Source: Corallococcus silvisoli
Lineage (GTDB): Bacteria > Myxococcota > Myxococcia > Myxococcales > Myxococcaceae
DNA length: 64,000 nt
Direction: 5' to 3'
Assembly: GCF_009909145.1 (NCBI RefSeq)
Contig: NZ_JAAAPJ010000005.1
Location: 464,470 to 528,469 of the forward strand
Shown here piece after piece: positions 1,680 through 53,255 of this stretch. Position 1 is the first letter of the stretch; the number at the start of each line of letters is the position of its first letter. The notes under the pieces are model-generated. The model saw nothing but the letters and a program-made list of their open reading frames with translations, was not told the origin of the DNA and searched no databases. A program made the translations under genes and the position numbers.

Positions 1680-1691
1680 CCGCCCAGGCCG

Positions 1692-4229: not shown

Positions 4230-4290
4230 CTCCCAGGCGCCTCCCCTTTTTCAAGGCCCCGGGCCGCGGCGCGCGGGAGGCCTCCTCCCC

Positions 4291-6417: not shown

Positions 6418-6535
6418 GCGCCGGTATCCATACCGCAAAGGGTTCGCTGGTGGCGAACTACCCGGAACAGCGGACCGCCGGCCCCTCGCGCGCCCGCCTG
6501 GTGTCGCGCCCCTTGGAAACAAACAGGGGAGAAAG

Positions 6536-6572
6536 AAAAAGGCCCCCTGGTTTCCCAGAGGGCCTTTATTTT
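6536..6572. terminator. GC-rich hairpin (GGCCCCCTGG-TTTC-CCAGAGGGCC) flanked by A-tract and T-tract; bidirectional intrinsic terminator downstream of tRNA-Gly
   Basis: The inverted repeat has one mismatch. On the plus strand it is followed by TTTATTTT, and on the minus strand reading by an A-run. Confidence 0.4.
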
Positions 6573-6581
6573 GGAGCGGGA

Positions 6582-6656
6582 AAAGGGATTTGAACCCTCG
6601 ACCCTCGCCTTGGCAAGGCGATGCTCTACCGCTGAGCTATTCCCGCATCAGGACTG
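6582..6656 (-). tRNA. tRNA-Gly (anticodon GCC)
   Basis: Reverse complement is GCGGGAATAGCTCAGCGGTAGAGCATCGCCTTGCCAAGGCGAGGGTCGAGGGTTCAAATCCCTTTTCCCGCTCCA. It folds as a canonical cloverleaf with a 7-bp acceptor stem, D arm GCTC/GAGC, anticodon loop TTGCCAA (GCC), T arm GAGGG/CCCTT and an encoded CCA. Confidence 0.9.
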
Positions 6657-6733
6657 CCGTACCGCTTGCTGCTTTCCGTCGGGCGGTGCCGCGCCGGAAG
6701 TGAGGTGGGGTATACAGAGGCCCTTCGGACACG

Positions 6734-7423
6734 TCAAACACTTTTCGCATCCGGATCCGCGCCCCCTCTGCGGGCGAGCATCCCGAGGAACGCGCGGAAG
6801 TACACGACGGCGCTCCACACCGAGAACGCACCCGACAGGTACACCAGCACCTTGCCGACCTGGTTGTAGTCGACGGTGACGGTGCGGAAGCCCAGGTCCA
6901 GCGGATGCACGTAGTGGACGCACAGGGAGATGATCCCCACCAGTTGGAGGGACGTCTTCCACTTCCCCTCCTGCCCCGCGGCGATGACCATGCCCTCGCT
7001 GGCGGCGATGGTGCGCAGGCCGCTGACGATGAACTCCCGCGCTAGCAGTACGATGACGACCCACGCGGCGATGCGCCCCAGGCGGACCATCATCACCAGG
7101 GCGGCCATGGCGATGAGCTTGTCCGCCAGCGGGTCCATGAACTTGCCCACCACGGTGATGAGGTTCCACTTCCGGGCGAGGTAGCCATCCACCACGTCGG
7201 TGATGGAGGCCACCGCGAACACCAGGCCCGCCAACAGGGAGTGCAGGGGGTCCGCGTCGTAGGTGAGCCAGACGAACAAGGGGATGATGAGGATCCGCCC
7301 CAGCGTGAGCATGTTGGGCAGGTTCCAGAACTCCTGCACCAGGATGCTGGGACGGCGGGAGGCGCGGCGGCGGGCCCGCTCCTCGCGCTTGCGCTGCTTC
7401 CTGAGGGCTCGCTCCGTGGCCAT
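6734..7423 (-). CDS. pgsA: CDP-diacylglycerol--glycerol-3-phosphate 3-phosphatidyltransferase
   Basis: WNLPNMLTLGRILIIPLFVWL...ASITDVVDGYLARKWNLITVVGKFMDPLADKL is the CDP-alcohol phosphatidyltransferase motif D-G-x2-AR-x8-G-x3-D-x3-D. Basic N-terminal extension of about 36 aa, so the true start may be internal (GTG near 7339). pgsA sits next to tRNA-Gly, as in E. coli pgsA-glyW. Confidence 0.85.
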   Translation of the reverse strand: MATERALRKQRKREERARRRASRRPSILVQEFWNLPNMLTLGRILIIPLFVWLTYDADPLHSLLAGLVFAVASITDVVDGYLARKWNLITVVGKFMDPLADKLIAMAALVMMVRLGRIAAWVVIVLLAREFIVSGLRTIAASEGMVIAAGQEGKWKTSLQLVGIISLCVHYVHPLDLGFRTVTVDYNQVGKVLVYLSGAFSVWSAVVYFRAFLGMLARRGGADPDAKSV

Positions 7424-7434
7424 GGGCGCGCGTT

Positions 7435-32013: not shown

Positions 32014-32040
32014 CGCGTCCTACTGAGGGGGGCACGAGCC

Positions 32041-35000: not shown

Positions 35001-35781
35001 AAGCCCCCAGCACCGGAGGTCCCGCGGGAGCACGTCCCGCCGCGGACGCGCCTGCCGCAGCAGAGCCCGAAGCCCCCAACACGGGACCACCCGTCGGTGC
35101 CCGATTGGCCGTGGACGTACCCGCGGACGGAGGACCCGAAGCCCCCAACACGGGACCACCCGTCGGTGCCCGATTGGCCGTGGACGTACCCGCCGAAGCT
35201 CCCGGAACTCCCCCCCCCATCGAGGGAGCGCCCGTGGGTGCCCTGTTCGGCGTCGCGGCGCCTGCCCCTGGTTGAGCCGGAGTGGGAGCGCCGACCGCCG
35301 GAAGATCCGGAGCGGAGGGGCGCTTGGGCGGCGGCACCCGGACCTCGGGCTGCTTCGGCGTGGCGGGCGGAGCTTCCGACATCGCCCCACCCTTCGCGGC
35401 GGGCACGGCCATCCCGGGCCTCGGCGCGAACGCCGGACGCGCCATCGCGGGCATGGACTGCTGGTAGCTCGTGGGCGCCGCTTCGATCTCCGCGAGCGCG
35501 GCCTGCTCCACGCCCTGGGGCGACACCCGTGCGTGCGGCGGCGCGAGCACCCTGCGGATGGGCCGGGTCACATCGTCATCGTCGTCCGGCGGCATCCACA
35601 CGAAGGTGAACTCCACCGGTCCGACGGTGATGCGATCCCCGTCACGCAGCTGCTTCTCGCCCGCCAGCGGCTGGCCGTTGAGCTGCGTGCCGTTCGCGCT
35701 GCCTACGTCCTCGGCGAAGTAGCGCCCATCCCGCGCCGTGATGCGTGCATGCCGCCGGGAGACACCATGGTCATGCAGCAC
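32041..35781 (-). CDS. Giant FHA-domain protein (>=1246 aa) with 25-aa tandem repeats, TM segment and C-terminal globular domain; annotated from GTG but true start probably about 100 nt upstream
   Basis: FHA core (VKIGRTSENDLV)LHDHGVSRRHARITARDGRYFAEDVGSANGTQLNGQPL...GDRITVG. Residues 196-358 are P/G/A-rich repeats (GASMSGATVSGRAPVGPPVLGAS). Downstream are a Pro-rich region, a TM helix (IGFASLGVLSVLALLALLVSVA) and a conserved C-terminal domain of about 300 aa. The first half of the FHA domain (PILLTITQGLQVGRELAFEQAEVKIGRTSENDLV) is encoded in-frame upstream of the annotated GTG, with no ATG/GTG/TTG available. Confidence 0.7.
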   Translation of the reverse strand: MLHDHGVSRRHARITARDGRYFAEDVGSANGTQLNGQPLAGEKQLRDGDRITVGPVEFTFVWMPPDDDDDVTRPIRRVLAPPHARVSPQGVEQAALAEIEAAPTSYQQSMPAMARPAFAPRPGMAVPAAKGGAMSEAPPATPKQPEVRVPPPKRPSAPDLPAVGAPTPAQPGAGAATPNRAPTGAPSMGGGVPGASAGTSTANRAPTGGPVLGASGPPSAGTSTANRAPTGGPVLGASGSAAAGASAAGRAPAGPPVLGASGSAAAGASAPGRIPGGPPVLGASAPGASMSGATVSGRAPVGPPMLGASSPGASMSGATVSGRAPVGPPVLGASAPGASMSGATVSGRAPVGPPVLGPGSGKASASGLPAVDAPTSNKATVGPPILGASSPNRGPVAPAPGGASEARASGPGSPAVDGSSSGRPSAPGPQPVGASTPGRSSSSGGGLGAASSAGRSPSLAVVPAGVAAQARSTALEVSGVGASAAPVLPKPPVLGAAVSGPPQPGASPRRKAIPGLPEVGAPALNRPDLGRGAARASSTATLSEPRDADSAASPSSAPRRNVPAASTPTQGRTPEPRNVVAAVPPQPVAPPQAPPPASAPRGWEAPVAGLLTSPVDLSPVDPDEPEERTLMAIPTVESPEPGFPPPPELPLAGFDEPEERTLMAIPATPDVPSLVAEPSPHIAPSMLPASTMDEPEERTMLDLRPITPVSPLVAPPVRHSGALPTNGTDEPATFVGQDDEVPSGPPAEAEELVTFVGQDEPGARPPALAPPSAWGAPVGPPSPEPVTFVGRDQGGVSPSSWSSPAEPDSPELVTAVGRDQGGVSPSSWGSPAEPDSPELVTAVGRDQGGVPPSAAWGSSVPPPPPDPVTFVRRPPGASPAVLDPGLLPGEVRALALHPRPEADGDTTEPVNDLEASSSQPVPAGPITVVAKVAPSSAADKARQRRQLGRSLHGKFLLFWQRQSLPRRIGFASLGVLSVLALLALLVSVAPAGLRLPGREPFKLGLEPVTDSFGLGDGVRWAHADDKLFDFRFVSPTRAVAVLHYQASDISRDEVNLSLNGVSLGWVPPDTAQTAERELEQVLPPSLLRRNANNQLLFDNALNPPGRERWRIWNLRLEIIPVPEAPPDQLVASARESARAGARFYELKDVGAENLFKAWREYRAAWITLEALDEKPDLYEDVRERISQISTELDHRCGQLMMQFQRAVQFRSRRDAVATLEDVRRRFPTTEHRCHNLALEKAYEHEL
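34708..35196 (-). repeat. Intragenic tandem repeat array: degenerate 75-78 bp units, with three near-identical 75-bp copies at about 34708-34932
   Basis: The unit GGAGGCCCCACGGGAGCACGTCCCGATACCGTGGCTCCCGACATCGA(G/C)GCTCCCGGCG(C/A)GGAAGCCCCCAA(C/T)ACG recurs with fewer than 5 mismatches. The encoded repeat on the minus strand is GASMSGATVSGRAPVGPPVLGASAP. Confidence 0.8.
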
Positions 35782-35887: not shown

Positions 35888-36778
35888 CTAGCCCCCGACG
35901 TTCCCGAACATGAACTGGAACACGATGGGCCCGAAGAGCACCATGAACACCGTCGGGAAGATGCAGGCGATGAGCGGGAAGAGCATCTTCACCGGCGCCT
36001 CGCCGGCCAGCTTCTCCGCGCGCTGCGTGCGGTCGATGCGCATCTGCGTGGACTGGATGCGCAGCACCTTGCCCAGGCTCGTGCCCATCTTGTCCGCCTG
36101 GATCAGCGCCGTGACGAAGGTCGTCAACGACGGCAGGTCCACGCGAGCAATCATGCTCTTGAGCCCTTCCTCACGCGTCTTGCCCATCTTGAGCTGCTTG
36201 AGCACCAGCTGCAGCTCCTCGCGCAGCGGCCCCTGGCGGCCCTTCTCCACCACCTTCGCGAGCGCACCCGTGAAGTCCATGCCCGCTTCCACCGACAGCG
36301 TGAGCAGGTCCAGGTTGTACGGAAGCGCGCGGCTGATGGCCAGGTGGCGGCGCTTCACCTGATCGTTCAACCAGATGAGCGGATAGAAGAGCCCCAGCAG
36401 CATCACCAGCAGCGACCAGGCCAGGTTGCCGCCAAGGCCGTTGACGACGAAGAGGCCCGCCAGCAGGGCAAAGAAGGCGCTGACTTCCTGCAGCGCCATG
36501 ATGTCCTCGGGCTTGTACTGCGACGGCTCGCCCGCCTTGATCAGCTTGCGGCGCGTCTTGGACTCGTAGCCCGGCCACATGAAGCGCCGGTTCATCGCGC
36601 CCAGCTTGCGGACGGCGACGGAGCCCGCGCCCTTCACGCCACCCGCGGACTCGTCACGTACCTCCGTGAGGAAGCGTTCGAGGACGTTGGTGTAGAGGCC
36701 GACGCCCAGGAACGCCACCGCGCCCGCAGTGAGCAGTGCCGAGCCGCCCATCAGCAAGAATGTCAGGAAATCCTGCAC
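35888..36778 (-). CDS. tadC: Tad/Flp pilus assembly inner-membrane platform protein TadC (T2SSF domain)
   Basis: GspF/TadC-type T2SSF domain (LPYNLDLLTLSVEAGMDFTGALAKVVEKGRQGPLREELQLVLKQLKMGKTREEGLKSM) flanked by TM helices. 296 aa. Confidence 0.85.
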   Translation of the reverse strand: MQDFLTFLLMGGSALLTAGAVAFLGVGLYTNVLERFLTEVRDESAGGVKGAGSVAVRKLGAMNRRFMWPGYESKTRRKLIKAGEPSQYKPEDIMALQEVSAFFALLAGLFVVNGLGGNLAWSLLVMLLGLFYPLIWLNDQVKRRHLAISRALPYNLDLLTLSVEAGMDFTGALAKVVEKGRQGPLREELQLVLKQLKMGKTREEGLKSMIARVDLPSLTTFVTALIQADKMGTSLGKVLRIQSTQMRIDRTQRAEKLAGEAPVKMLFPLIACIFPTVFMVLFGPIVFQFMFGNVGG

Positions 36779-36791
36779 GGTGCGCCTCGAT

Positions 36792-37637
36792 TCAGATGTC
36801 GATGTTGACGATGCGCCGGATGATGAGGATGCCCATGATCTCCATGATGGCGATGATGGTCACCAGGATGTAGCCGAAGATGTGGTTCATCATCGGCTCC
36901 ATCAGGTCCGGACGCATGTAGTTGAGGACCAGGCCCAGCACCGCAGGCATGGCCGCGACGATCCACCCTTGAAGCTTGCCCTGGGACGTCAGCGCGTCGA
37001 TCTTGCCTTCCAGACGGAAGCGCTCGCGGATCACCGTGGAGATGGTCTCGAACATCTCCGCCATGTTGCCGCCCAGCTGGCGCGCGATGTTGGTGGACAC
37101 CACCACCAGCTCCAGGTCATCGCTGCCCACCCGGCGGCCCATGTTGACGAGCGCCTCTTCCAGGGGAACGCCCAGCTTCACTTCCTTCACGAAGAGGCCG
37201 AACTCCTGTGACAGGGGCGGCATCGCCTCGCGCGCCACGTGCTCGATGGCCTGCGGGAACGTGAGACCCGCCTTGAACGCGTTGGCCATGGCCTGCAGCG
37301 CGTCCACCAACTGCACGTTGAACTTCTTGATGCGGCGCGTGCGGTAGTGCTTCACGAGCAGCATCGGCAGGAAGAAACCGAAGATGGTCGCCAGCACCGC
37401 CAGGATGGGGTTGAAGACGATGTAGCTGAGGATGCCCAGGAGGCACATGCACGCGATGTTGAGGATCAACATCTGCCGCGCGTCGATGAAGAGGAACATG
37501 TCGCTCAAGTCGTTCATCGACTTGGCGACGTAGCGCTCCTGGTACTGCTCATACGCCTTCGACAGGACGCTGAAGATCACCAGGCTGAAGAAGAACACCG
37601 AGCCGGTGACGAGAAGGAGGACGATACCTGCGAGCAT
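36792..37637 (-). CDS. tadB: Tad/Flp pilus assembly inner-membrane platform protein TadB (T2SSF domain)
   Basis: T2SSF domain (LVDALQAMANAFKAGLTFPQAIEHVAREAMPPLSQEFGLFVKEVKLGVPLEEALVNMGRRVGSDDLELVV) with N- and C-terminal TM helices. 281 aa, 13 nt upstream of tadC. Confidence 0.85.
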   Translation of the reverse strand: MLAGIVLLLVTGSVFFFSLVIFSVLSKAYEQYQERYVAKSMNDLSDMFLFIDARQMLILNIACMCLLGILSYIVFNPILAVLATIFGFFLPMLLVKHYRTRRIKKFNVQLVDALQAMANAFKAGLTFPQAIEHVAREAMPPLSQEFGLFVKEVKLGVPLEEALVNMGRRVGSDDLELVVVSTNIARQLGGNMAEMFETISTVIRERFRLEGKIDALTSQGKLQGWIVAAMPAVLGLVLNYMRPDLMEPMMNHIFGYILVTIIAIMEIMGILIIRRIVNIDI

Positions 37638-37715: not shown

Positions 37716-38531
37716 CTACGGCGAGCCAGCCGCCGACTTGTCGCTGCCGCCACCCTTGATGATCTGGATGATCTCCCGGCGCTTCTGCTCCAGCACGCGG
37801 GTGCGCTCGCCGGACAGCAGCGTGCTGATGGTCGCGCGGCCGCGCTCCTCGATGAGGTCCACGTCGTCCTCGTTGCGCAGCGACAGGGTCAGCTGTCCGA
37901 GCTCCGCCGCCAGCACCAGGATCTCCGCCTCTTCCGGCAGCACCATCAGCGACACGTTGTTGTAGTCGCGCTGGTTCTCCGGGATGAGGTTGATGTTCGT
38001 GGTGCCGGTGATCTTGCCCGTGGCGACCACGATGATGTTCTGCAGCAGCGTCACCGCGACGCTCTCATCCGTCTGCGGATCGCGGAACGTGCCGATGATG
38101 TCCACGTGGTCGTTGGGACGGATCCACCCGCCCACGGCCGTGGTCAGCTTCGCCTCGATGGTGATGGCGCGCGCCTTCTTCTGCACCTTCGTCGACAGGC
38201 GCTCGGCGGCCTTCGTCGTCTCGAACTGGCTCCAGAGGATGGGGTCGCCGGCCTGCAGCGCCACGAGCACCTTCTGGTTCACGATGTAGTTGGCGGAGTC
38301 CGGCTTCACCACCGACGAGGTGACGAACTGCTCCGGCACGGAGCGCTGGGAGATCATCTCGTACGTGATGACCGACCCCTCGGGCATGTCCTGGCCCGCC
38401 ACCACCACGGGCACCAGGTTCCACCCGCGACGCACATCCGATTCCTTCTTCTTGATGGCCGAGTAGGCCACGATGCCGGCGAGCAAACCGAGCACCAGCG
38501 CGACGACGAGCGGGGTCTTACCCTTCAACAT
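37716..38531 (-). CDS. cpaB: Flp pilus assembly protein CpaB/RcpC (SAF domain)
   Basis: N-terminal TM anchor LVVALVLGLLAGIVAYSAI, then a SAF-like and RcpC beta region (VPVVVAGQDMPEGSVITYEMI...). 271 aa. RBS GGAGGA located 7 nt upstream. Confidence 0.85.
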   Translation of the reverse strand: MLKGKTPLVVALVLGLLAGIVAYSAIKKKESDVRRGWNLVPVVVAGQDMPEGSVITYEMISQRSVPEQFVTSSVVKPDSANYIVNQKVLVALQAGDPILWSQFETTKAAERLSTKVQKKARAITIEAKLTTAVGGWIRPNDHVDIIGTFRDPQTDESVAVTLLQNIIVVATGKITGTTNINLIPENQRDYNNVSLMVLPEEAEILVLAAELGQLTLSLRNEDDVDLIEERGRATISTLLSGERTRVLEQKRREIIQIIKGGGSDKSAAGSP

Positions 38532-38614
38532 GGTTCAAGGTCCTCCAGAACGGTGGGGCGCCGTCGTGGCGGCAGGACTGCTTTGGACGAGGGGGCAATG
38601 CCAGGGCGCGAACG

Positions 38615-38672
38615 AGTGAAGATGTTAGCCATGCCCCAGAGCAGGTGTCAAAACCACCTCTCGTGACAAAGC
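38615..38672 (-). promoter_or_regulatory. Candidate promoter/operator upstream of cpaB: TTGACA-like -35 inside a TGTCA-N13-TGACA inverted repeat, with a TAACAT -10-like hexamer 18 nt downstream
   Basis: The minus-strand sequence reads CTTTGTCACGAGAGGTGGTTTTGACACCTGCTCTGGGGCATGGCTAACATCTTC. It lies in the only sizeable non-coding gap (about 230 nt) inside the Tad block, between the pilin and cpaB. Confidence 0.25.
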
Positions 38673-38760
38673 GGAATCCCTGGACGCCTGGGAGGCCGCG
38701 GCGCCTGTCCACCCCCGGGGGGACGGCGCGAAACGCGGCCGGATCCATGGCCTCCGTCCC

Positions 38761-39063
38761 TCAGGGGAACGGCAGGTTCAGCACGAAGTAGAACGAGTCG
38801 TAATAAATCTGGTACGCCTCGAGGAAGAGGTCGATGACGTTGGTCTGCTTGTCCTCGCTCCAGCGGACCTTCACCGTGGCGCCGACGACGAGCGCGACGA
38901 TCAACACCCAGTTGATCATCGAGTACTCCACCATCGCCTGGCCACGGCGGGCCCTGCGCGGGGAGCGCTTCGACGACTTCCGGGGAGTGTTCACGGGGGG
39001 ATGATCCACGTCCGGCCTCATGGTCGCATCATCCACGGCCCGGGGGAGCGCCGCATCGGTCAT
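38761..39063 (-). CDS. Flp-type (type IVc/Tad) prepilin with unusually long basic leader
   Basis: The prepilin peptidase motif is G/XXXXEY in RRARRG-QAMVEYSMINWVLIVALVVGATV, with E at +5 and Y at +6, followed by a hydrophobic helix. The mature part of about 59 aa (…KVRWSEDKQTNVIDLFLEAYQIYYDSFYFVLNLPFP) is pilin-sized. The leader is 27-41 aa depending on start (MTDAALP or MRPDVDH). Confidence 0.6.
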   Translation of the reverse strand: MTDAALPRAVDDATMRPDVDHPPVNTPRKSSKRSPRRARRGQAMVEYSMINWVLIVALVVGATVKVRWSEDKQTNVIDLFLEAYQIYYDSFYFVLNLPFP

Positions 39064-39101
39064 GTGGACCGTCGCCGGAGAAAGCGCGGCGGCCCCCTCC
39101 C

Positions 39102-40547
39102 CTATTCCGTGGGCGCCGGGGCGCTGGCGGGCAGCTTCGTGCTGGCGGCGGGCGCCATGATGGGCGCGGCCTTGCGCATGCGGCGCTGGGCCATCTGGGC
39201 GGCGCCGGACTCGGGGGCTTCGTGGACGACCTGGGCGCAGACGACCGCGGCGGCGTCGCTCTGGCCCTGAGCGGACTCCGAGTCACACAGCCGCGAGAGC
39301 AGGTCCAGCCGCTCACCGCCACTGGGTCCGGCCGCGAGCGCGGCGCGCAGCAGCTGGGCCTCCCGGACGCGATCTCCCTGGCTCGCGGCGGCTTGCGCCT
39401 GACGGGCCAGCTCGCGCGACGTCATCGCTCCGGCCGGGGGCTGCTTCTCCATGGGCTTGGGCTTCGCGGCCTCCGCGCGTGCCGATTCCTTCACCGGTTC
39501 GGCGACCGCGCGGGCCGGGCCCGGGGCCAGCTTCGAGGCGCTGACCGCGCCGGTGGCGGAAGGCGTCGCGGGCGCGGCCTGCGCCATGGGCGCCGAGGCC
39601 ACCGGCGCCGGAGGCGGCGGCGACGCGGCCTCTCCCATGGCGGCATCGTCGGACGCGAGCCCGCGCCCGTAGGACGCACCGCCCAGCCGCAGTGAGTCGC
39701 GCTTCGCGACCTGGGCCTTGTCCGTGCCTCCCCCTGCCTGGTCGAACGCGGAGTCCGAGGTGGAGCGTGCGTCCTTCCCGCCATACACGGCGCCGGCCGC
39801 CTCTTCCTTCGGGGCCTGTGCCGGCTCGAGCGCCGCGAACTCGCCGTCCGCGTCCTGGGCCTTGGACAGCTTCTTCGTGGGCGCGGGCCCCTCGCGTCGG
39901 CGCTCCAGCATCGCGCCTCCACCGCCCGCGTTCATCCAATCCGACGGACGGCCCGCGGCATTGCCCTTGAGCTGCGCATCCGCCTGATTCCGTGCGGGCG
40001 CGTCTTTCAGCGCCTCGGAGGCCGGAGCCGCCGCCAGCAGGTCATCGCTCCGCGGGGTGTAACTCCTCCCCATCGGCGCGGGCGCGGAGGCGGGCGCGGA
40101 CTTCGGCTCGCGCTTGCCCAGCGTGCGGGTCTCATCCTCCGCCGGGGCCCTCGCGGGGCTCGCGGTCTTCTGCGCCAGGTTCGGCTCCAGGTGGAGGCCC
40201 TCGTTGACCTCCAGCGACAGGATGCCGAAGGTGCTCACCGTGGCCAGGCCCACCGCGGGCAAGAGCCAGCGGCGCCAGCGCGAGGGCTTCGGCTCCGGCC
40301 CCGCGGAGGCGCGGCGCGCGGACTGCTGGGCGTACGCGAGCAGCGACTCCAGGCCCGCGTCCGGCGCGGGTTCGGTCGACAGCTGCGCCATGGTGGTGCG
40401 CACGCCGCGGATGTCCGCCAGCGCCTTGGAACAGCGCACACAGCCCTGGACGTGCTGCTCCAACGCCTGGGCCTCCGTCGCCGGAAGCTCGCCGTAGGCG
40501 AAGTCGAGGAGCCGGTCCTCGTGCGCGTGAGCATTCTGGGCACTCAT
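39102..40547 (-). CDS. Anti-sigma factor (zf-HC2 type), single-pass membrane protein with long low-complexity periplasmic region
   Basis: Start MSAQNAHAHEDRLLDFAYGELP. Zinc-finger anti-sigma motif HVQGCVRCSKALADI (H-x3-C-x2-C). TM segment WLLPAVGLATVSTFGILSL. The start overlaps the stop of the upstream ECF sigma gene (ATGA). The 155-aa N-terminal extension in the ORF track is rejected. Confidence 0.7.
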   Translation of the reverse strand: MSAQNAHAHEDRLLDFAYGELPATEAQALEQHVQGCVRCSKALADIRGVRTTMAQLSTEPAPDAGLESLLAYAQQSARRASAGPEPKPSRWRRWLLPAVGLATVSTFGILSLEVNEGLHLEPNLAQKTASPARAPAEDETRTLGKREPKSAPASAPAPMGRSYTPRSDDLLAAAPASEALKDAPARNQADAQLKGNAAGRPSDWMNAGGGGAMLERRREGPAPTKKLSKAQDADGEFAALEPAQAPKEEAAGAVYGGKDARSTSDSAFDQAGGGTDKAQVAKRDSLRLGGASYGRGLASDDAAMGEAASPPPPAPVASAPMAQAAPATPSATGAVSASKLAPGPARAVAEPVKESARAEAAKPKPMEKQPPAGAMTSRELARQAQAAASQGDRVREAQLLRAALAAGPSGGERLDLLSRLCDSESAQGQSDAAAVVCAQVVHEAPESGAAQMAQRRMRKAAPIMAPAASTKLPASAPAPTE

Positions 40548-41191
40548 CCCGCCACCGTCCTTCCATCCTCCGACAGGTCGCCATCCACACCCAGCTCGCC
40601 CAGGCGGCGGCGCAAGCCCTCCAGCGCGTAACGCATCCGGCTCTTCACCGTGTTTTCGGACACGCCCGTCACCTCGGCGATCTCCTTGAACGGGATGCCG
40701 CTGTACTCCCGCAGCACGAACACCTCGCGCTGCTCCTCCGGCAGCCCCGCGAGGGCCCGCTCCAGCAGGGGCCGCAGGCGCGCGTTGTGCGCGCCGCGCT
40801 CCGGACTGGCACCGGCGTCCGGCAGCCCCTCGCCCAACGGACGTCCCTCGTCCCCGTCCGCACCGGCCGCGGGGGCCTCCAGGGACGTCGCCTGGCGGTA
40901 GCTCTCTTTGCGCGTGCTGTCCACGCAGAGGTTCCTCGCGATGGTGTACAGCCAGGTCGTGAACCGGGCCTTCGGCGCGTATTCCCGGGCACTGCGGACC
41001 ACCTTGAGCCACGTCTCCTGCAGCACGTCCTCCGCCCGCGCCCGGTGCCCGACGAAGCGCAGGATGAAGTTGAACACCGGCGCGCGGTGCTTTCGCACCA
41101 GCGCCTCGAACGCACGCGCGTCTCCCGCCTGGAAGGCGAGCATCAGATGCTCGTCTGAGGTTTCGGGTGCCAAACTTCCCCCAGTGCCCAT
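40544..41191 (-). CDS. ECF-type RNA polymerase sigma-70 factor
   Basis: Sigma70 region 2 (FEALVRKHRAPVFNFILRFVGHRARAEDVLQETWLKVVRS...FTTWLYTIARNLCVDSTR) and region 4 (LPEEQREVFVLREYSGIPFKEIAEVTGVSENTVKSRMRYALEGLRRRL). The start is ambiguous (41191 or 41224). Confidence 0.8.
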   Translation of the reverse strand: MGTGGSLAPETSDEHLMLAFQAGDARAFEALVRKHRAPVFNFILRFVGHRARAEDVLQETWLKVVRSAREYAPKARFTTWLYTIARNLCVDSTRKESYRQATSLEAPAAGADGDEGRPLGEGLPDAGASPERGAHNARLRPLLERALAGLPEEQREVFVLREYSGIPFKEIAEVTGVSENTVKSRMRYALEGLRRRLGELGVDGDLSEDGRTVAG

Positions 41192-41255
41192 GAAGCCACG
41201 GGTGCCATCCCCTTCGCCGCCCACCGCCTGTAACGGACAGCCGTGCGCGAAAGGT

Positions 41256-41669
41256 CTATTCCGGCCGTGGCCGCCGGTAAGTGGCGAGAATGACAGGGAC
41301 CGCCACCCCTGTCACCAGAAGTGCCTGCGCCAACAGCACCGCGGGGAGCGGGTGCTGCACGTGGACATGCAGCGAGCGGCCAAGCCCCGCCCCCAATAGG
41401 ACGCCCGTCAGCGTGCGCACCGCGTTGGAACCCGACGCGGGCCGGAACCGCCCCACCGCCCAGTCCAGCAGCGCGGGCAGCGTGAGGCCCAGTCCCACCG
41501 GGACCTCCCACGACCACTGGAGCGGCGCCTTCAGCGCGAACAGCCCCAGGAAGACGGCGGCGAGCACCGGGTACGTGCCCAGGCATCGCGCGCACACGCG
41601 CACGCCCGCGAGCACATAGGTGCGGTTGTATTCATCCGGGTGATGATGGCTGAGCCAGAACACCGGCAC
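41256..41669 (-). CDS. DUF2085-like small membrane protein (CxxC, 3-4 TM)
   Basis: [44 protein letters not shown] matches the DUF2085 pattern of conserved H-rich segment, C-x-R-C and TM helices. The start is uncertain (GTG near 41669). The ORF-track N-terminus overlaps the upstream ABC gene and is rejected. Confidence 0.45.
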
Positions 41670-42683
41670 CTCCTCCGGACGCGGAGACAGTGGGGGTTTC
41701 CCACGCGGGACGGGCGTCCCCCTCCGCCAGGAAGCACGCCGCGGCGTGGCCTCCCCCCAGCGGGTACAGCGGGGGCGACTCGCGCCGGCAGCGCTCCATC
41801 GCGTGGGGACAGCGTGGGTGGAACGCACAGCCGGCGGGCGGAGACAGCGGCGAGGGCGGCTCCCCCGGCAGCAACAGCCGGGCGCGAGGCCGCTCCGGAT
41901 CCGGCACCGGCACCGCGGACAACAGGGCCTGCGTGTACGGGTGGCGCGGCCCGGAGTACAGCGCGCGCGACGGCGCCACCTCCACGATGCGGCCCAGGTA
42001 CATCACCGCCACGCGCGTGGACACGTACTCCACGATCTTCAGGTCGTGCGCGATGAAGACGTAGGTGAGGCCGCGCTCGCGCTGCAGGTCCACCAGCAGG
42101 TTGACGATCTGCGCCTGGATGGAGACGTCCAGCGCGCTGATGGGCTCGTCCGCCACCACCAGCTCCGGGCGCAACGCGATGGCACGTGCAATGCCGATGC
42201 GCTGGCGCTGGCCCCCGGAGAACTCGTGCGGGTAGCGGTGCCGCGCCTCGCGGGGCAGGCCCATGGCGTCCAGGAGCGCCAGCACCTCGTCCTCGCGTGC
42301 CCGGCCCTTCGCGAGCCCGTGGATGGCGAAGGGCTCCGCGAGGATGTCCCCCACCGTCATGCGCGGGTTGAGGGACGCGTACGGATCCTGGAAGACCAGC
42401 TGCATGCGGCGGCGCAGCGGCCGCAGCTCGCGCTGCGACAGGCCGGTCAGCTCGCGCCCCTCCACGCGGATGGAGCCGGACGTCGGGTCGATGAGGCGCA
42501 GGAGCGCGCGCCCCAGGGTGCTCTTGCCGCAGCCGCTCTCCCCCACCAGGCCCAGCGTCTCACCCCGGGCGACCTCGAAGGACACGCCGTCCACCGCGCG
42601 CACCGTGCCGCGCGTGCGCCCCAGGAAGCCGCCCCGCACCGGGAAGTGCACCTTCAGGTCGCGCACCTGGACCAGCGGCTCGC

Positions 42684-42687
<4 letters not shown>
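41632..42687 (-). CDS. Oligopeptide/dipeptide-type ABC transporter ATP-binding protein (DppF/OppF-like), no cognate permease or binding protein nearby
   Basis: Walker [19 protein letters not shown], signature [14 protein letters not shown] and Walker [14 protein letters not shown]-terminal oligopeptide-ABC extension with Cys/His motifs ([13 protein letters not shown]). Start [13 protein letters not shown] overlaps the upstream gene stop (ATGA). Confidence 0.8.
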
Positions 42688-43702
<1,015 letters not shown>

Positions 43703-43706
<4 letters not shown>

Positions 43707-44704
43707 TTCTGGGCCAGCTCCTCCAGGAACTCCGCCTCCTGGATGAGCCCCTTGCGGATGAGCAGGCGGATGAGGCTCGCGACCATGCGCGCGGGCTTCA
43801 CCTTCTCCGTGTCCAGGCTGGCCTCCTCGCCGCGAGAGATGCGGTCGATGTCGTCCAGCACCGCCAGGTCCTCCTCGGAGAAGTCCGGCTTGGGCGTGAG
43901 CGCCACCGACGGCTTCACGCCCTGCGCGGCGCCGCCGAAGAGCACCACCGGCACGCGCGGCTTGTTGGGATCCGCGTCCGCCTCCGAGGGCGGCGGCGGC
44001 GGCGGGGGCGGAGGCCTCGCGGCGGCGGGGGGCGGCGGGGGCCTGGCGGCGGGCCGGGGCTTGGAGCCCAGGATGTCCTCCAGCACCTCCGCGCCGTCCG
44101 CGGAGGACTCGTGGGGCGGCGGCGGGGGCAGGTCCCAGTCCAGAGGCGGAGGCGCGGGCGGGCGCGCCGACGAGGGACGCGCGGCGGCGGGCGCCGGCGT
44201 CGACGGCAGGATGTCCGGCGAATCGTCCTCGTCCATGTCCATCGGTTCTGCCTCCACGATGTCCAGGGGCTCTCCCCGGCCGCGCGCGAGCGCCTGCTCC
44301 AGGTCGTCTGGAGCGGCGACAAAGACCTTGAGCTGCTTGCGCAGTTGGAAGCGCAGCTGGTCCACCAGGTTCAGGTTGCCCGGGTCCTCCACCGCCACGT
44401 GGAGCTTCTCGCTGCGGCCGTCCTGCTCCAGCGCGAAGAGCAGCACGCGCTGCTCGGTCTGGAAGTCCATGGACACCAGCGAGGACACCGCGTGCGGGAT
44501 GTACTCGGGGATCTCCACGAAGGGCAGCTCGTGCTGCGCCGCCAGCGCCCGCGCGATGTCCCGGCCGGTGCACAGGCCCATGGACACCAGCACCTCGCCC
44601 AGCTTGCGGCCCTGGCCGCGCCGTCCGGAGGCCAATGCCTGCTTCACCTGCTCGTCCGTGACCACGCCCGCCTGGACGAGGAGTTCACCAATCTTCTTGC
44701 GCAT
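43703..44704 (-). CDS. GspE N-terminal (T2SSE_N / MshEN-like) domain protein with long Pro-rich tail
   Basis: [63 protein letters not shown] is the canonical T2SSE_N helical hairpin found at the N-terminus of GspE/MshE ATPases. No ATPase domain follows, only a P/A-rich low-complexity region of about 120 aa and a short C-terminal helix. Confidence 0.65.
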
Positions 44705-44713
44705 GGCCGGGGG

Positions 44714-45469
44714 CTACCGCTTGACCTTGGCGAGGTATTCCTCGCGGGAAAAAACGCCCTTCTCGATGAGCAGCTCCACCATGGCCTTGAGCGCCGCGAC
44801 CTCCTTGCGCTGCACGTCCTCCACGCTCTTGAGCAGCTCCGCGGGACTTCCGGAGGCCGCCGCGCGAGGCGCCTCCGCGGGAGGCGGCGGACGGGCCGGC
44901 GCGGGGGCGGGACGGGCGGGCGCGGACGCAGCGACCGCGGCGGCCGGGTCCAGGTCCTTGAGGTTCTTCACGACGGTGCGGCCCTGGGCGTCCACCACCT
45001 TGAAGTTGGTGTCCGCGTCCTCCAATTCCGCCGACTCCTCGTAGAGGCGCGCGAACGCCCGCGCCACGGACGTGCGCCCCGCCACGTTGGCCACGATGCG
45101 GCACTTGGACAGGGCCCGCAGCTCGTCCAGCACCCGCACGTTGAGCGGATCCGACATCGCGACCACCAGCGTCTTGCCGTCGTCGCGCAGCTGCAGGGGC
45201 ACGACAGAGAAGTCGCGCGCCGTCTGCGAGGGAATCTTGGCCTTCACGTGCGGCGGCACCGCCTGCACGGCGTCCAGGTTCACCGCCGGCATGCCGAGCT
45301 GCTTCGACAAGGCGCGCACGAGGATGTCCTCGGAGACGAGGTTCATCCGGACGAGGATCTCGCCCAGCTTCCCGCCCCACTTGGCCTGCTCGGCGAGCGC
45401 CGCCTTGAGCTGGCTCTCCTGCAGGACGTTCGCCTTGATCAGCAGTTCTCCAAGCTTGATCTGTGCCAT
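44714..45469 (-). CDS. GspE N-terminal (T2SSE_N / MshEN-like) domain protein, paralog
   Basis: MAQIKLGELLIKANVLQESQLKAALAEQAKWGGKLGEILVRMNLVSEDILVRALSKQLGMPAV carries the same T2SSE_N signature, followed by a second helical region and a P/A-rich linker. 9 nt upstream of its paralog. Confidence 0.65.
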   Translation of the reverse strand: MAQIKLGELLIKANVLQESQLKAALAEQAKWGGKLGEILVRMNLVSEDILVRALSKQLGMPAVNLDAVQAVPPHVKAKIPSQTARDFSVVPLQLRDDGKTLVVAMSDPLNVRVLDELRALSKCRIVANVAGRTSVARAFARLYEESAELEDADTNFKVVDAQGRTVVKNLKDLDPAAAVAASAPARPAPAPARPPPPAEAPRAAASGSPAELLKSVEDVQRKEVAALKAMVELLIEKGVFSREEYLAKVKR

Positions 45470-45528
45470 GTCGTGCGCGCCATAGTACCCGGTTTGAGCC
45501 GGGGCGCTGCCTTTCGACGCCTGGAAGC

Positions 45529-46359
45529 TCAGGAACCCGGCGCCGGGGGCGGCGGCGACACCGTGTCCCGGCCCCGGACTTCCTGGCCCCGCGCGTCGAC
45601 GTTCACCACCTTCGCCCCCTCGGGTGCCGTCAGCTCGTACAGCGTCAGGTCCGGCCGGCCGTTGAGGCGGATGTCCGTGTAGCGGAGGTCCAGCCGTGTG
45701 TCCGCCGACGCGGCGATGAGGTGGACCTTGTCGGGGAAGAACAGCTCGCCGCGCTGCTGGAAGTCCTCGAACGCCAGGTCGTAGCCCGGCACACCTCGCA
45801 CCTCGCTCTTCACCACGCGCAGGTGTTTGGGATCCACGCGGAGTGTTTGCGTCGCGGGCCCCCGCTGGAGCTTCAGCACATACACGCGGTCCTTCTCATC
45901 CAGCGCCAGGGTCATGGACTCCGGCGGCAGGAGGGGGACCTGCCCGAGCATCACCGCGACCAGCTCCTCGCTCGGCAGGACGACAGGCAGGAAGCGCGAC
46001 ACGTTCTCCGCGCTGGCGGGGCCCTGGAGGTAGACGTTGTCCCGCGCCTGATAGACGCCGAAGCGCGCCCCGTCGGAGACGAGCGAGGCGACCGGGCGGT
46101 TGAAGAAGTCGTAGGTCTCCAGGTGGATGAGCCCTGGACGGGTGATGGAGAGGAAGGTGGAGAGGGTGCCGCTGCCCTGGGGGGAGTCCACGTGCAGCTT
46201 GGCGTCGCCCTCCAGGTTCACCACCTTCGCCTGTCGCTCGCGCACATGCTGGTAGAGCGTCTGGGCATCCTCGATGCGGCCTTCCGGACCGAACTCGAGG
46301 CGTTTGGGGCAGGCCGAACAGAGGAGGGCCAGGAAGATTGCGGCGGCTGCGCGGTTCAT
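45529..46359 (-). CDS. Outer-membrane lipoprotein, LolB/DUF4292-like
   Basis: Signal plus lipobox MNRAAAAIFLALLCSAC. A beta-rich body of about 250 aa with LolB/LppX-like features. The first ATG of the ORF track (46386) is also possible. Confidence 0.55.
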   Translation of the reverse strand: MNRAAAAIFLALLCSACPKRLEFGPEGRIEDAQTLYQHVRERQAKVVNLEGDAKLHVDSPQGSGTLSTFLSITRPGLIHLETYDFFNRPVASLVSDGARFGVYQARDNVYLQGPASAENVSRFLPVVLPSEELVAVMLGQVPLLPPESMTLALDEKDRVYVLKLQRGPATQTLRVDPKHLRVVKSEVRGVPGYDLAFEDFQQRGELFFPDKVHLIAASADTRLDLRYTDIRLNGRPDLTLYELTAPEGAKVVNVDARGQEVRGRDTVSPPPPAPGS

Positions 46360-46401
46360 ATGTCCTAGTGTGAGCCAGGGCCGCATGCCCGGTCATCCAT
46401 C

Positions 46402-47133
46402 ATGAGCCTGAACGATCTACTTCATTACCTTCGCCTGGGCGGCGTCACCCTCGCCCTCCTCCTGGGTGCCTCCGTGGTCGCCCTGGGTGTGGCCATCGAA
46501 CGACTCATCGCCCTGTGGGGCGTGAGCGAGCGCTCCCGAAACCTGGGGGAGATCGTCCACAAGCACCTCCTCCGGGGGGACGTGGCCGCGGCCCGCACCG
46601 CCGCCGAGCGCTCCGACGCGGTGGCCGCCGACATCTTCCTCGCCGGCTTCGACCGCTGGGAGCGCTCCCGCGCCACCGGCGGCAACGGCATCGAGTCCGC
46701 CGTGGAGCGCGAGCGCGCCCAGGTGGGGCTCAAGCTGCGGCGCAACCTGTGGCTGCTCGCGACCATCGGTTCGACGACGCCCTTCGTGGGCCTCTTCGGC
46801 ACCGTGGCCGGCATCATGCGCTCCTTCAAGGACCTGGGCGTGGACGTGGAGGCCGGCGGCACGGGCGGCTCCGCGGCGGTGATGACGGGCATCTCCGAGG
46901 CGCTCGTGGCCACCGCGGTGGGCATCCTCGTCGCCGTGCAGGCGATGGTCTTCTACAACTACTTCCAGGCGCGGCTGTCCCGCGTGCTCGTGGAGCTGCG
47001 GCTGCTGGGCGACGAGTTCGTGGAGATCCTCAAGGAGCGCGCCGCCGGCGGCCCGCTGCCAGAACCAACGCCTTCACGCGAGAGCCCCGCGGCCCCCGCG
47101 CCGCGCCCGGATCCGCAGCCCGCCTCGTCGTAA
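46402..47133 (+). CDS. exbB: MotA/TolQ/ExbB proton-channel family protein
   Basis: Three TM helices with the signature LWLLATIGSTTPFVGLFGTVAGIMRSF. 243 aa. Confidence 0.85.
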   Translation: MSLNDLLHYLRLGGVTLALLLGASVVALGVAIERLIALWGVSERSRNLGEIVHKHLLRGDVAAARTAAERSDAVAADIFLAGFDRWERSRATGGNGIESAVERERAQVGLKLRRNLWLLATIGSTTPFVGLFGTVAGIMRSFKDLGVDVEAGGTGGSAAVMTGISEALVATAVGILVAVQAMVFYNYFQARLSRVLVELRLLGDEFVEILKERAAGGPLPEPTPSRESPAAPAPRPDPQPASS

Positions 47134-47148
47134 GGAGACACGCCCACC

Positions 47149-47604
47149 ATGGCCATGGGAAAGACGCCGGGCTCGTCCGACGATGAGGTCGAAGGCGCCG
47201 GCTTCGCGGAGATCAACATCACGCCGCTCACGGACGTGATGCTGGTGCTGCTCATCATCTTCATGGTGACCAGCTCCGTCATCACGCAGCAGGGTCCGGG
47301 CGGCGGCGCCAAGGCGGGCCTCAAGGTGAACCTGCCCAAGGGCGGCGCGGCGGACGTCACCGCGCGCACGACGGACCTGTCCGTGGCGGTGCTGGCGGAC
47401 GGCCGCTTCATGCTCGCCGGCAACGTCGTCGCGGAGGCGGAGCTGAAGCAGGCCTTCGACAAGGCGAAGGATCAGAACCCCGACACCGTGGTCATCGTCC
47501 AGGCGGACGAGGGCGTCTCCCACGGGACGGTGGTGCAGGTGATGGAGCTGGCGAAGAAGGCCGGCCTCGCGCAGCTCGCCATCGGCGTGCGCGAGGGCAA
47601 CTAG
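47149..47604 (+). CDS. exbD: ExbD/TolR biopolymer transport protein
   Basis: The N-terminus EINITPLTDVMLVLLIIFMVTS has the conserved D in the TM helix. The periplasmic domain is VVIVQADEGVSHGTVVQVMELAKKAG. 151 aa, 15 nt after exbB. Confidence 0.85.
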   Translation: MAMGKTPGSSDDEVEGAGFAEINITPLTDVMLVLLIIFMVTSSVITQQGPGGGAKAGLKVNLPKGGAADVTARTTDLSVAVLADGRFMLAGNVVAEAELKQAFDKAKDQNPDTVVIVQADEGVSHGTVVQVMELAKKAGLAQLAIGVREGN

Positions 47605-52133: not shown

Positions 52134-53255
52134 ATGGCTCGGATCCTCGTGGTGGACGACGACGTGCTCATCCTCGCGGCGCTTTCCCGAATCCTGCAGG
52201 CGGAGGGCTACGAGGTCGTCACCCACAGCGATCCGGTGGTCGCGGCGCGGGAACAGGGCTTCGACGTGGTGCTGACGGACTTCATGATGCCGTACCTCAA
52301 CGGCATCGAGCTGCTGTCGGCGCTCCGGGAGAAGAACCCGCGCGCGGTGCGGCTGATGTTGACGGCGGCGGCGGACTTCAAGACGGCGTCGGAGGCGGTG
52401 AACCGGGGCGAGGTCTTCCGGTTGCTGGGCAAGCCGTGGGCGCTGAGCGAGCTGACCAGCAGCGTGAGGCAGGCCATCGAGCACCACCGGCTGGTGGCGG
52501 CCAACGAGCGGCTGACGCGCGAGGTCGCGGAGAAGAACGCGGAGCTGCTGGCCATCAACGAGGGCCTGGAGCGCCGGGTCATCGAGCGCACGACGGGGCT
52601 TCTGGACGGGCTCATCAGCGCGCTGGACTACCGCGACACGGAGACGCAGTGGCACTCACGGCGCGTGTCGCTGTACGCGCGGCGGCTGGCGCAGGAGATT
52701 GGCCTCACCGGGCCGGCGTTGGACGTGGTGGAACAGGGCGCGCTCCTGCACGACATCGGCAAGATTGGCGTGCGCGACTCCATCCTGCTCAAGCCCGGGC
52801 CGCTCACGCCCGAGGAGTGGGTGGAGATGAAGCAGCACCCGGAGTTCGGCTACCGGATGCTGGCGAAGATGCCCTACCTGCACGAGGCGGCGCTCATCGT
52901 GCTGCAGCACCAGGAGCGCTGGGACGGCAAGGGCTACCCGCTGGGGCTCAAGGGCGAGGACATCGTCGTCGGCGCGCGCATCTTCTGCCTCGTGGATACG
53001 CTGGACGCCATCACCTCCGACCGGCCCTATCGCAAGGGACGTCCCATGAGCGTGGCCCGCGACGAGGTCCGCCGCTGCGCGGGGACGCAGTTCGACCCGG
53101 CGCTCGCGGAGGCGTTCCTGGGCCTCCCGGAGACGGAGTGGGCCCGCATCCGCCGCGAGGTGGAGATGATGGAAGAAGCGGAGGACCGCCGCTGGAACGG
53201 CGGGAAGCTCAACGCCCACGGTGAACCCGAGCCCGCGCGCGCCAGCGGGGCCTGA
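52134..53255 (+). CDS. Response regulator with HD-GYP domain (c-di-GMP phosphodiesterase type)
   Basis: Receiver MARILVVDDDVLILAALS...DVVLTDFMMPYLNGIELL. The HD-GYP part is HSRRVSLYARRLAQEIGL...LLHDIGKIGVRDSILLKPGPLTPEEW...HPEFGYRML..HQERWDGKGYPLGLKGEDI, with HD and GYP motifs intact. Confidence 0.85.
   Translation: MARILVVDDDVLILAALSRILQAEGYEVVTHSDPVVAAREQGFDVVLTDFMMPYLNGIELLSALREKNPRAVRLMLTAAADFKTASEAVNRGEVFRLLGKPWALSELTSSVRQAIEHHRLVAANERLTREVAEKNAELLAINEGLERRVIERTTGLLDGLISALDYRDTETQWHSRRVSLYARRLAQEIGLTGPALDVVEQGALLHDIGKIGVRDSILLKPGPLTPEEWVEMKQHPEFGYRMLAKMPYLHEAALIVLQHQERWDGKGYPLGLKGEDIVVGARIFCLVDTLDAITSDRPYRKGRPMSVARDEVRRCAGTQFDPALAEAFLGLPETEWARIRREVEMMEEAEDRRWNGGKLNAHGEPEPARASGA

Follow-up and report, generated by a model that had tools for sequence, protein, structure and literature searches.

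MshEN domains classically serve as N-terminal regulators of ATPases. In MshE of Vibrio cholerae (PDB code 5HTL), PilB and PilF (Thermus thermophilus PilF GSPII-B, PDB code 8PDK) they carry a tandem 24-residue motif for cyclic di-GMP (c-di-GMP). They also occur outside secretion ATPases, namely in NfrB of Escherichia coli (a glycosyltransferase), Bd2402 of Bdellovibrio (REC-MshEN), PA3740 of Pseudomonas aeruginosa and FrgA of Myxococcus xanthus, and are often joined to uncharacterised regions (Wang et al. 2016). Here we describe two tandem genes encoding stand-alone MshEN proteins in a 64,000-nucleotide stretch of Corallococcus silvisoli DNA (contig NZ_JAAAPJ010000005.1, G+C content about 71%; hereafter the window), which were designated A (44714–45469, minus strand, 251 amino acids) and B (43703–44704, minus strand, 333 amino acids). 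The product of gene A is 100% identical to a protein listed as 'MULTISPECIES … [Corallococcus]', which places the DNA in this genus. A and B share the fold and the tandem motif of MshE, PilB and PilF, but they have no attached ATPase, are two separate proteins and each possess a disordered tether and an orphan hairpin. In NfrB, Bd2402, PA3740 and FrgA the output domain is part of the same polypeptide, whereas the only other conserved element of A and B is a hairpin of approximately 30–40 residues, and the two paralogues are always adjacent. A and B form a conserved, cytoplasmic pair of MshEN proteins that stand alone, and from their sequences and gene order we see an even chance that they serve as c-di-GMP sensors for the Kil contact-killing module of Myxococcota.

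The Kil system of M. xanthus is a Tad-like contact-killing apparatus encoded in two clusters, cluster 1 (MXAN_3102-3108) and cluster 2 (MXAN_4648-4661) (Seef et al. 2021, PMC8460266). Cluster 1 holds the prepilin peptidase, the secretin and the ATPase KilF, which carries an N-terminal FHA domain and not MshEN (PMC8460266). In this respect the machine neighbouring A and B, which is Tad-like, differs from those driven by MshE, PilB and PilF. A separately encoded c-di-GMP receptor acting on a filament machine through its ATPase is known from the PilZ-FimX-PilB system of the Xanthomonas type IV pilus, which we propose as a parallel for A and B. There, however, the receptor fold is PilZ/EAL instead of MshEN, and the MshEN-like N-terminal domain of PilB is the docking site and not the sensor. 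PilZ-domain genes near the tad genes of Bdellovibrio provide a second parallel for a separately encoded receptor, again with a different fold (PilZ versus MshEN).

Domain searches placed both proteins in the MshEN family. The Pfam model MshEN (PF05157, cutoff 23.1 bits) matched residues ~58–147 of both A (56.9 bits) and B (48.6 bits), and the NCBIfam model 'c-di-GMP_motif, MshE-related' (NF053729, cutoff 38 bits) matched residues 5–57 of A with 64.7 bits and residues 4–57 of B with 61.0 bits. In both, an MshEN_N four-helix bundle with two 24-residue motifs and an alpha/beta MshEN_C part make up the head, which a disordered Pro/Ala tether joins to a short helical hairpin at the C-terminus. The two were modelled as monomers with AlphaFold (AF2). 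The model of A has a mean predicted local distance difference test (pLDDT) value of 87.5; residues 1–144 form the MshEN fold with pLDDT >95, and the Pro/Ala-rich linker (~145–208) is of low confidence and predicted to be disordered. In B, residues 1–142 are a confident MshEN domain (pLDDT >90), a long Pro-rich region (~143–275) is predicted to be disordered and three C-terminal helices are of moderate confidence. A Foldseek search with the model of A revealed similarity to MshE bound to c-di-GMP (5HTL) with a template modelling (TM) score of 0.84 and a root-mean-square deviation of 2.2 Å. Further matches were PilF GSPII-A, PilF GSPII-B with c-di-GMP, the Xanthomonas PilB-N/PilZ complex (7LKM/7LKO) and XpsE-N; the matched entries include 8PDK, 9G1W and 2D28. 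This fold placement covers A only, and the fold of B is that of its AF2 model. The two proteins are paralogues with 34% identity across the MshEN domain, and 9 nucleotides separate their genes.

No ATPase domain was found in A or B by Pfam and NCBIfam scans, and no other family matched either protein. The next-best NCBIfam matches were models of the NfrB family, and the GspE/PilB equivalog models aligned to A and B at the first ~150 positions only, with 13–66 bits compared to cutoffs of >600. NCBI lists A and B as 'general secretion pathway protein GspE', which in view of these results is a misnomer. The first-pass annotation of this DNA, which had proposed two tandem stand-alone MshEN-type proteins with long P/A-rich linkers and no ATPase domain, thus holds in all three points.

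The name given by NCBI and the occurrence of two MshEN open reading frames (ORFs) in tandem might suggest fragments of a disrupted GspE or PilB gene. The chance of this is close to nil and we reject it, because the conservation pattern refutes it; the first-pass annotation had likewise argued against it. Neither ORF is interrupted, more than 150 loci conserve both at full length, and the N- and C-termini are strongly constrained. No ATPase remnant follows downstream, the C-terminal regions show no relation to ATPase domains, and in M. xanthus the orthologues are transcribed. In an exhaustive search, the combination of MshEN domain, linker and hairpin proved to be that of a large family: among the best 150 clusters, formed at 50% identity, approximately 90 have lengths of about 200–400 amino acids and keep both ends.

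A is the orthologue of MXAN_4667 and B that of MXAN_4666, an assignment based on synteny and on the sequences given by Wang et al. 2016. A shares 84% identity with its counterpart in M. xanthus DK1622. B orthologues evolve fast, with 57% identity to Myxococcus and 45–50% to Archangiaceae. MXAN_4666 and MXAN_4667 were catalogued as M. xanthus MshEN proteins by Wang et al. 2016, and a table of that paper has them in one column with MshE, PA3740 and Bd2402, whose binding is proven, and separate from GspE and PilB of V. cholerae. They were also counted among the 17 MshEN genes of M. xanthus (Kuzmich et al. 2022). Since the A and B orthologues have thus been known as MshEN proteins since 2016, the idea is less new than the first-pass annotation implied. 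New are the conserved attachment of the A–B string to Kil cluster 2, the arrangement as a pair whose hairpins are homologous, and a substitution by an HD-GYP-like gene in a sister clade.

The two 24-residue c-di-GMP motifs of A lie at residues 5–57 (45299–45457, minus strand) and read KLGELLIKANVLQESQLKAALAEQ and KLGEILVRMNLVSEDILVRALSKQ, separated by the five-residue spacer AKWGG. Compared to the MshE consensus RLGxx(L/V/I)(L/V/I)xxG(L/V/I)(L/V/I)xxxxLxxxLxxQ, A carries Lys for Arg at position 1 and Asn for Gly at position 10. A Lys at motif position 1 is also present in PilF GSPII-B, which binds with a dissociation constant of 6 nM and 25-fold worse after the substitution K167R. The Asn at position 10 recurs in the PilB proteins of M. 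xanthus and Geobacter in our motif alignment; binding data for these two proteins were not found in the literature. The motif region of B (residues 4–57; 44534–44695, minus strand), aligned to MshE (5HTL), shows a one-residue insertion before the spacer in the first half-site, by which Arg28 is aligned with MshE Gln32. In the second copy, Cys at position 12 is the only departure from the canonical motif. Distant B orthologues have a canonical first copy (…ALGHQKQWGGKLG…, …SALGHQKQWGGKLG…), and among the aligned B orthologues the residues G6, L35, G36, L54 and Q57 are invariant.

An alignment of 73 family members reaching down to ~33% identity shows no or almost no variation at L6, G7, L21, L25, Q28, L35, G36, L54 and Q57. 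The scores of distant A and B orthologues with NF053729 are 76.5, 62.5 and 67.0 bits, above its cutoff. Regarding the Leu-Gly and Gln residues which contact the ligand, A retains L6-G7, Q28, L35-G36 and Q57 without exception. B retains I5-G6, L35-G36 and Q57, but its first Gln is replaced by Arg/Gly with the one-residue insertion. The first-pass annotation had named conservation of the tandem motifs as a point to check. They proved largely intact, as both proteins exceed the NF053729 cutoff and A keeps these contact residues, but the first half-motif of B is partly degenerate and the literal pattern described below fails in both proteins. No residues of the family are more conserved than those at the ligand-contacting positions, which argues for a functional site. 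Binding of c-di-GMP by A is considered likely and binding by B plausible, with a weaker site in this genus.

Some of these observations would also suit proteins that no longer bind c-di-GMP and act as pure protein–protein scaffolds, like the XpsE/GspE N-domain with GspL or the Xanthomonas PilB N-domain with PilZ. Among the structural matches of A are the XpsE N-domain, which does not bind, the PilB-N/PilZ complex, and PilF GSPII-A, likewise a non-binder. The relaxed expression of Wang et al. 2016, [RKPN]hGxxhhxx[GAS]hhxxxxhxxxhxx[QNKRYWST], required twice, is matched literally by neither A nor B. The failure of A is due solely to Asn at position 10 in both copies. B fails through two residues, the Gly at position 24 in its first copy and the Cys at position 12 in its second. 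In Myxococcaceae the first half-site of B and its spacer have drifted and are partly degenerate. Both the mismatches and this drift also count against a sensor function. Nevertheless, we regard this reading as pure scaffolds as very unlikely, for the columns that correspond to the contact residues of MshE show the highest conservation in the family, and A and B both lie more than 20 bits above the NF053729 cutoff. Moreover, the changes which abolish binding in XpsE (G11V, R38G, G40L, Q61V and others; Wang et al. 2016) are not present in A, which retains G7, K34, G36 and Q57, and an HD-GYP-like gene resides in the same gene string of the sister clade.

The C-terminal helix-turn-helix hairpin of A (residues 209–251; 44717–44845, minus strand; …RKEVAALKAMVELLIEKGVFSREEYLAKVKR) comprises helices 209–236 and 242–250 with pLDDT values of 92–97. 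Its last ~30 residues (AALKAMVELLIEKGVFSREEYLAKVKR) are invariant in Myxococcaceae and Archangiaceae and almost unchanged in the sister clade; at the opposite end of the protein, residues 1–58 are almost invariant from Corallococcus to Archangium. In B, a conserved helix and a C-terminal hairpin (residues 277–333; 43706–43876, minus strand) consist of helices 277–290, 304–317 and 323–332 and form a conserved block in the alignment of B sequences. In distant B orthologues a search by regular expression was without success, and the hairpin was found by profile methods. The A hairpin is homologous to that of B (hhalign 88%, E 3e-6). A comparison with a single 24-residue motif of the N-terminal MshEN domain yielded a signal for the B hairpin (hhalign 74%, E 3e-5) and a weak one for the A hairpin (hhalign 28%). 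Both keep the hydrophobic pattern of the motif but have neither its Gly at position 3 nor its final Gln. That the hairpin is an orphan copy of the 24-residue motif is a lead and not a result, given a moderate signal from B only. We infer that the hairpins provide a docking or dimerisation element and not a ligand site.

A Tad-like gene set is located 5 kb downstream of A and B. It comprises RcpC/CpaB (KilB-like, 37716–38531, Pfam RcpC), TadB (KilG-like, 36792–37637, Pfam T2SSF) and TadC (KilH-like, 35888–36778, Pfam T2SSF), followed by two FHA-domain proteins of 1246 and 584 amino acids, the latter FHA-TPR (30259–35781, Pfam FHA / Yop-YscD_cpl / TPR), all on the minus strand. Upstream of RcpC lies an ORF of 100 amino acids (38761–39063, minus strand) without Pfam match, which contains a Flp-type processing signature (…GQAMVEYSMINWVLIVALVV…, …RRGQAMVEYSMINWVLIVALVV…) and whose position before RcpC is conserved in related loci, as revealed by tblastn. 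It is a candidate for the Flp-type Kil pilin, and its true start is probably downstream of the listed one. Between B and these genes, the minus strand encodes a sigma factor of the extracytoplasmic function (ECF) type (40544–41224; Sigma70_r2/r4; start uncertain, 41191 or 41224), the orthologue of MXAN_4662, and a zf-HC2 anti-sigma factor (39102–40547; PF13490), the orthologue of MXAN_4661, with an ATGA overlap of the two genes. In M. xanthus, MXAN_4661 is listed as 'putative zinc-finger' and is the last gene of Kil cluster 2 (Seef et al. 2021 supplementary table, PMC8460266). The Tad-like genes of the window (Flp-like, RcpC, TadB, TadC, FHA, zinc-finger) show the same order relative to A and B as Kil cluster 2 in M. 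xanthus, and by gene content and order the set matches this cluster.

No CpaF-type ATPase was found among the ORFs scanned in the window. A Tad-like machine without its ATPase had been proposed for this locus from the start, and the published Kil split explains it, as cluster 2 likewise lacks the ATPase and KilF belongs to a separate cluster. The accompanying statement that Tad ATPases lack the MshEN N-domain agrees with the FHA domain found at the N-terminus of KilF (PMC8460266).

In M. xanthus, 'Operon 24' comprises MXAN_4667-4666-4665-4664-4663-4662-4661 (Kuzmich et al. 2022) and thus ends at the last gene of Kil cluster 2. A strong transcription start site (TSS) was mapped 5 nucleotides upstream of MXAN_4667 and a second one 66 nucleotides upstream of MXAN_4662 (Kuzmich et al. 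2022). Genomic linkage of A and B with Kil core genes was thus found both in the loci of divergent Myxococcota and in the operon call. By this gene order and operon, the functional tie to the Tad-like machine suggested by the first-pass annotation appears strengthened.

Gene order was compared in loci which all belong to one phylum, Myxococcota, and effectively represent two large clades and a few singletons. A scan of genome contigs covered the best 80 of 372 relatives, so that the survey by name is one of Myxococcaceae and Archangiaceae, and a third homologue search with the family profile returned almost only these two families and therefore few named distant relatives. A second clade, hereafter the soil clade, was recovered by a metagenome scan seeded with a distant subfamily. 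Its members are named 'Deltaproteobacteria bacterium 13_1_…' and 'Myxococcales bacterium', and their A proteins are 44–51% identical to A of the window. Linkage to Tad genes was counted within 10-kb flanks of the A–B loci.

In more than 60 genome loci of Myxococcaceae and Archangiaceae, the arrangement ExbD-ExbB, divergent from DUF4292, A, B, two ATP-binding cassette (ABC) ATPases, DUF2085 and sigma is essentially invariant, and Flp, RcpC, TadB and TadC come next wherever the flank reaches. The soil clade retains the order DUF4292, A, B, sigma, anti-sigma, RcpC, TadB, TadC, FHA. A second MshEN protein (B, 640–1040 amino acids) always follows A, RcpC, TadB and TadC come next in all 16 loci of sufficient length, and an FHA gene follows TadC in locus L164. 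Counted over the two large clades, DUF4292 lies directly upstream of A in 68 of 73 and 35 of 36 loci, and an ECF sigma gene follows the A–B string in 56 of 57 and 17 of 17. The variable part is the segment between B and sigma. Here the soil clade encodes a stand-alone HD-GYP-like protein of about 305 amino acids (L164, 10802–11725; L107, 8377–9294; L098, 11662–12594) in place of the ABC and DUF2085 genes. Its 'AHDVG' and 'GFGYPR' signatures are kept and its match to Pfam HD_5 (19.7 bits) is below cutoff. L098 represents a separate lineage with the same sigma, anti-sigma and Tad arrangement. The deep core of the locus thus consists of DUF4292, A, B, the sigma/anti-sigma pair and the Kil platform, with variable inserts. 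As judged from these comparisons, the pattern exceeds simple inheritance of gene order, on a base of roughly two large clades and singletons from one phylum.

In Corallococcus loci including the window, the anti-sigma gene is directly followed by the Flp-like pilin and RcpC (window 38531–39102). In M. xanthus (L001, 16421–20718), TadE, Tad/TadG and TadE, which are the minor pilins KilM4, KilN4 and KilL4, are inserted after the anti-sigma gene and are absent from that position in Corallococcus.

In this genus, the closest genes downstream of B encode two orphan ABC ATPases of the Opp/Dpp type (42684–43706 and 41632–42687, both minus strand, ABC_tran + oligo_HPY) and a small DUF2085 membrane protein (41256–41669, minus strand; PF09858, 38.4 bits), which is syntenic in M. 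xanthus. Start and stop codons overlap from B to DUF2085: the GTG start of the first ATPase gene overlaps the TGA stop of B (GTGA), the two ATPase genes share ATGA, and the DUF2085 gene overlaps the end of the second. The sigma and anti-sigma genes form a separate chain of this kind. Translational coupling thus connects the A–B string to the ABC ATPases and not to the Tad genes. A and B might therefore regulate these two ATPases and DUF2085, for instance as c-di-GMP-dependent gates of an unconventional ABC system, the Kil genes being mere neighbours. Besides the overlaps, this reading can draw on the contiguity of the five genes in 63 of 63 Myxococcaceae/Archangiaceae loci and in L083, and on the classical role of MshEN domains as N-terminal regulators of ATPases. 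The soil clade speaks against it: the ABC ATPase gene after B and DUF2085 were found there in 0 of 24 loci, yet A and B, with the nearly identical hairpin of A, are kept beside sigma/anti-sigma and Tad. A partner dispensable in half of the family is unlikely to explain an invariant hairpin, and we therefore consider the ABC genes quite unlikely to be the actual target. Irrespective of A and B, no permease or binding-protein gene was found among the neighbouring genes scanned, and the ATPase pair and DUF2085 may be an unconventional ABC system with DUF2085 as the membrane part.

ExbB/ExbD was also considered as a functional partner. A TolQ/ExbB-TolR/ExbD pair (46402–47604, plus strand) is encoded divergently from the DUF4292 lipoprotein gene, with no adjacent TonB or TolA gene. 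The pair is adjacent in 65 of 65 Myxococcaceae/Archangiaceae loci and in L101 and L145, and it was rejected because it occurs in 0 of 25 soil-clade loci and is confined to these families and close relatives.

Several points weigh against A and B as sensors of the Kil system. MXAN_4667 and MXAN_4666 are outside the published boundary of Kil cluster 2 and not among the genes deleted (Seef et al. 2021, PMC8460266). A functional study of MXAN_4662-4670 was not found in the main texts of the searchable literature. The kil clusters are reported as starvation-induced (PMC8460266), whereas MXAN_4667 and MXAN_4666 fall mildly during development with log2 fold changes of −0.4 to −0.8 (Kuzmich et al. 2022). 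Tad genes were found within 10 kb in only 18 of 55 Myxococcaceae loci, with other genes inserted (minor pilins in M. xanthus). In L087, L090 and L095 a giant TSP3-repeat protein follows the anti-sigma gene, at the usual position of Tad, and no Tad genes are present in the available sequence (L087, 15066–16901; L090, 12122–15772; L095, 14489–16423); OmpA-CarboxypepD_reg proteins are encoded upstream in L087 and L095. Part of the synteny can be put down to shared ancestry, and synteny is not interaction. Finally, M. xanthus possesses 17–22 MshEN proteins, mostly of unknown role, and the pair need not be specific for Kil.

The last point also supports a more general explanation, according to which A and B serve at large as c-di-GMP receptors or buffers, or control another process, for instance type IVa pili, gliding or matrix production, and the adjacency to Kil is inherited order without functional meaning. 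The orthologues are expressed vegetatively from their own promoter (~1200 and ~650 normalised counts for MXAN_4667 and MXAN_4666 in growing cells; Kuzmich et al. 2022), and every locus comes from one phylum. We nevertheless judge this explanation unlikely, as the flanks have been reshuffled (ExbBD, ABC/DUF2085 versus HD-GYP-like, type III secretion genes in L083), yet the order DUF4292-A-B…sigma-anti-sigma-Tad survived at 44–51% identity.

The locus L083, from a metagenome-assembled genome of Myxococcales (A 59% identical), presents A, B (1729 amino acids), two ABC ATPases, DUF2085 and sigma beside type III secretion genes. SctJ/YscJ, SctQ, FliO/P-like and SctS genes and a gene for a TSP3-repeat protein of 1102 amino acids adjoin the A–B string there (1–9618 and 10574–15763). 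In M. xanthus predation, the type III secretion system T3SS* cooperates with Kil according to the literature.

Assuming that A and B do sense c-di-GMP for Kil, binding of the ligand to the MshEN_N bundle would alter the contact that the head and its tethered hairpin make with a partner, and A and B may pair through their matching hairpins. One possible target is the Kil inner-membrane platform or the ATPase KilF, to which A and B would supply in trans the MshEN N-domain that PilB and MshE carry in cis. Another is the adjacent ECF sigma/anti-sigma pair, through which expression of the kil genes would be set. Both options fit the data equally well, since the closest conserved neighbours of the two genes are the ECF sigma and anti-sigma genes. 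Going one step further, A and B may form a 'split PilB head', a heterodimeric c-di-GMP-gated adaptor whose C-terminal hairpins pair in an MshEN_N-like bundle and which, via the disordered tethers, licenses Kil assembly or KilF engagement at prey contacts or releases the ECF sigma factor. We put this forward tentatively and hold it to be doubtful. If true, it would provide a second-messenger input into contact-dependent killing, and Kil cluster 2 would gain seven genes (the equivalents of MXAN_4662-4668).

How Kil assembles only at prey contact is described as unknown in a 2026 preprint, and an upstream signalling cascade has been suspected among the uncharacterised genes of the kil clusters (Seef et al. 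2021, PMC8460266). A link of Kil to an MshEN protein or a second-messenger input was not found in the searchable literature. The gene string described here nominates a candidate signal input chained to Kil cluster 2, consisting of two MshEN proteins and an ECF sigma/anti-sigma pair, with an HD-GYP-like protein in some lineages. If confirmed, predation would be tied to c-di-GMP, which is already central to motility and development of Myxococcus, and a Tad system whose ATPase is without an MshEN N-domain could gain a sensor in trans.

Upstream of A, separated by a gap of 59 nucleotides, a LolB-like DUF4292 lipoprotein is encoded (45529–46386, minus strand; PF14125, 49.8 bits; weak match to LolB1 below cutoff). 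The gene A of M. xanthus has its own TSS, so the lipoprotein and A need not be co-transcribed. Kil is without the pilotin TadD and RcpB (Seef et al. 2021, PMC8460266), and one can speculate that the LolB-like lipoprotein could be an outer-membrane accessory of the secretin KilC. A consensus promoter scan revealed no promoter upstream of A. Visual inspection of the Myxococcaceae sequences revealed a TAnnnT box 12 nucleotides upstream of the ATG of A, which reads TACTAT in the window (45470–45500) and TAGAGT in M. xanthus. The box agrees with the published TSS at −5, which would make the A mRNA nearly leaderless, but it is not conserved at this position in Archangiaceae and we give it little weight.

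Four features had escaped the first-pass annotation: the conservation of the C-terminal hairpins, the chain of overlapping codons from B to the two ABC ATPases and DUF2085, the intervening ECF sigma/anti-sigma genes and the previous listing of MXAN_4667 and MXAN_4666. It had further pointed to a c-di-GMP theme in the window, based on two other genes. The HD-GYP response regulator at 52134–53255 was confirmed and is syntenic throughout Myxococcaceae and Archangiaceae. The hybrid kinase with a degenerate GGDEF domain is likewise present (19764–22277, minus strand, 837 amino acids; GAF-HisKA-HATPase-REC-GGDEF, with the I-site RHPD at 764 and the degenerate A-site GQGVF), but it lends no independent support to a link with Kil. 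It appears to be the orthologue of a known protein, SgmT (MXAN_4640; 836 amino acids, R763HPD, GGGVF), a c-di-GMP receptor kinase which regulates extracellular matrix composition with DigR. Elsewhere in the window, a protein of 475 amino acids (14035–15462, minus strand) showed a marginal match to ParB_N in its C-terminal part (26.1 bits, cutoff 26.3).

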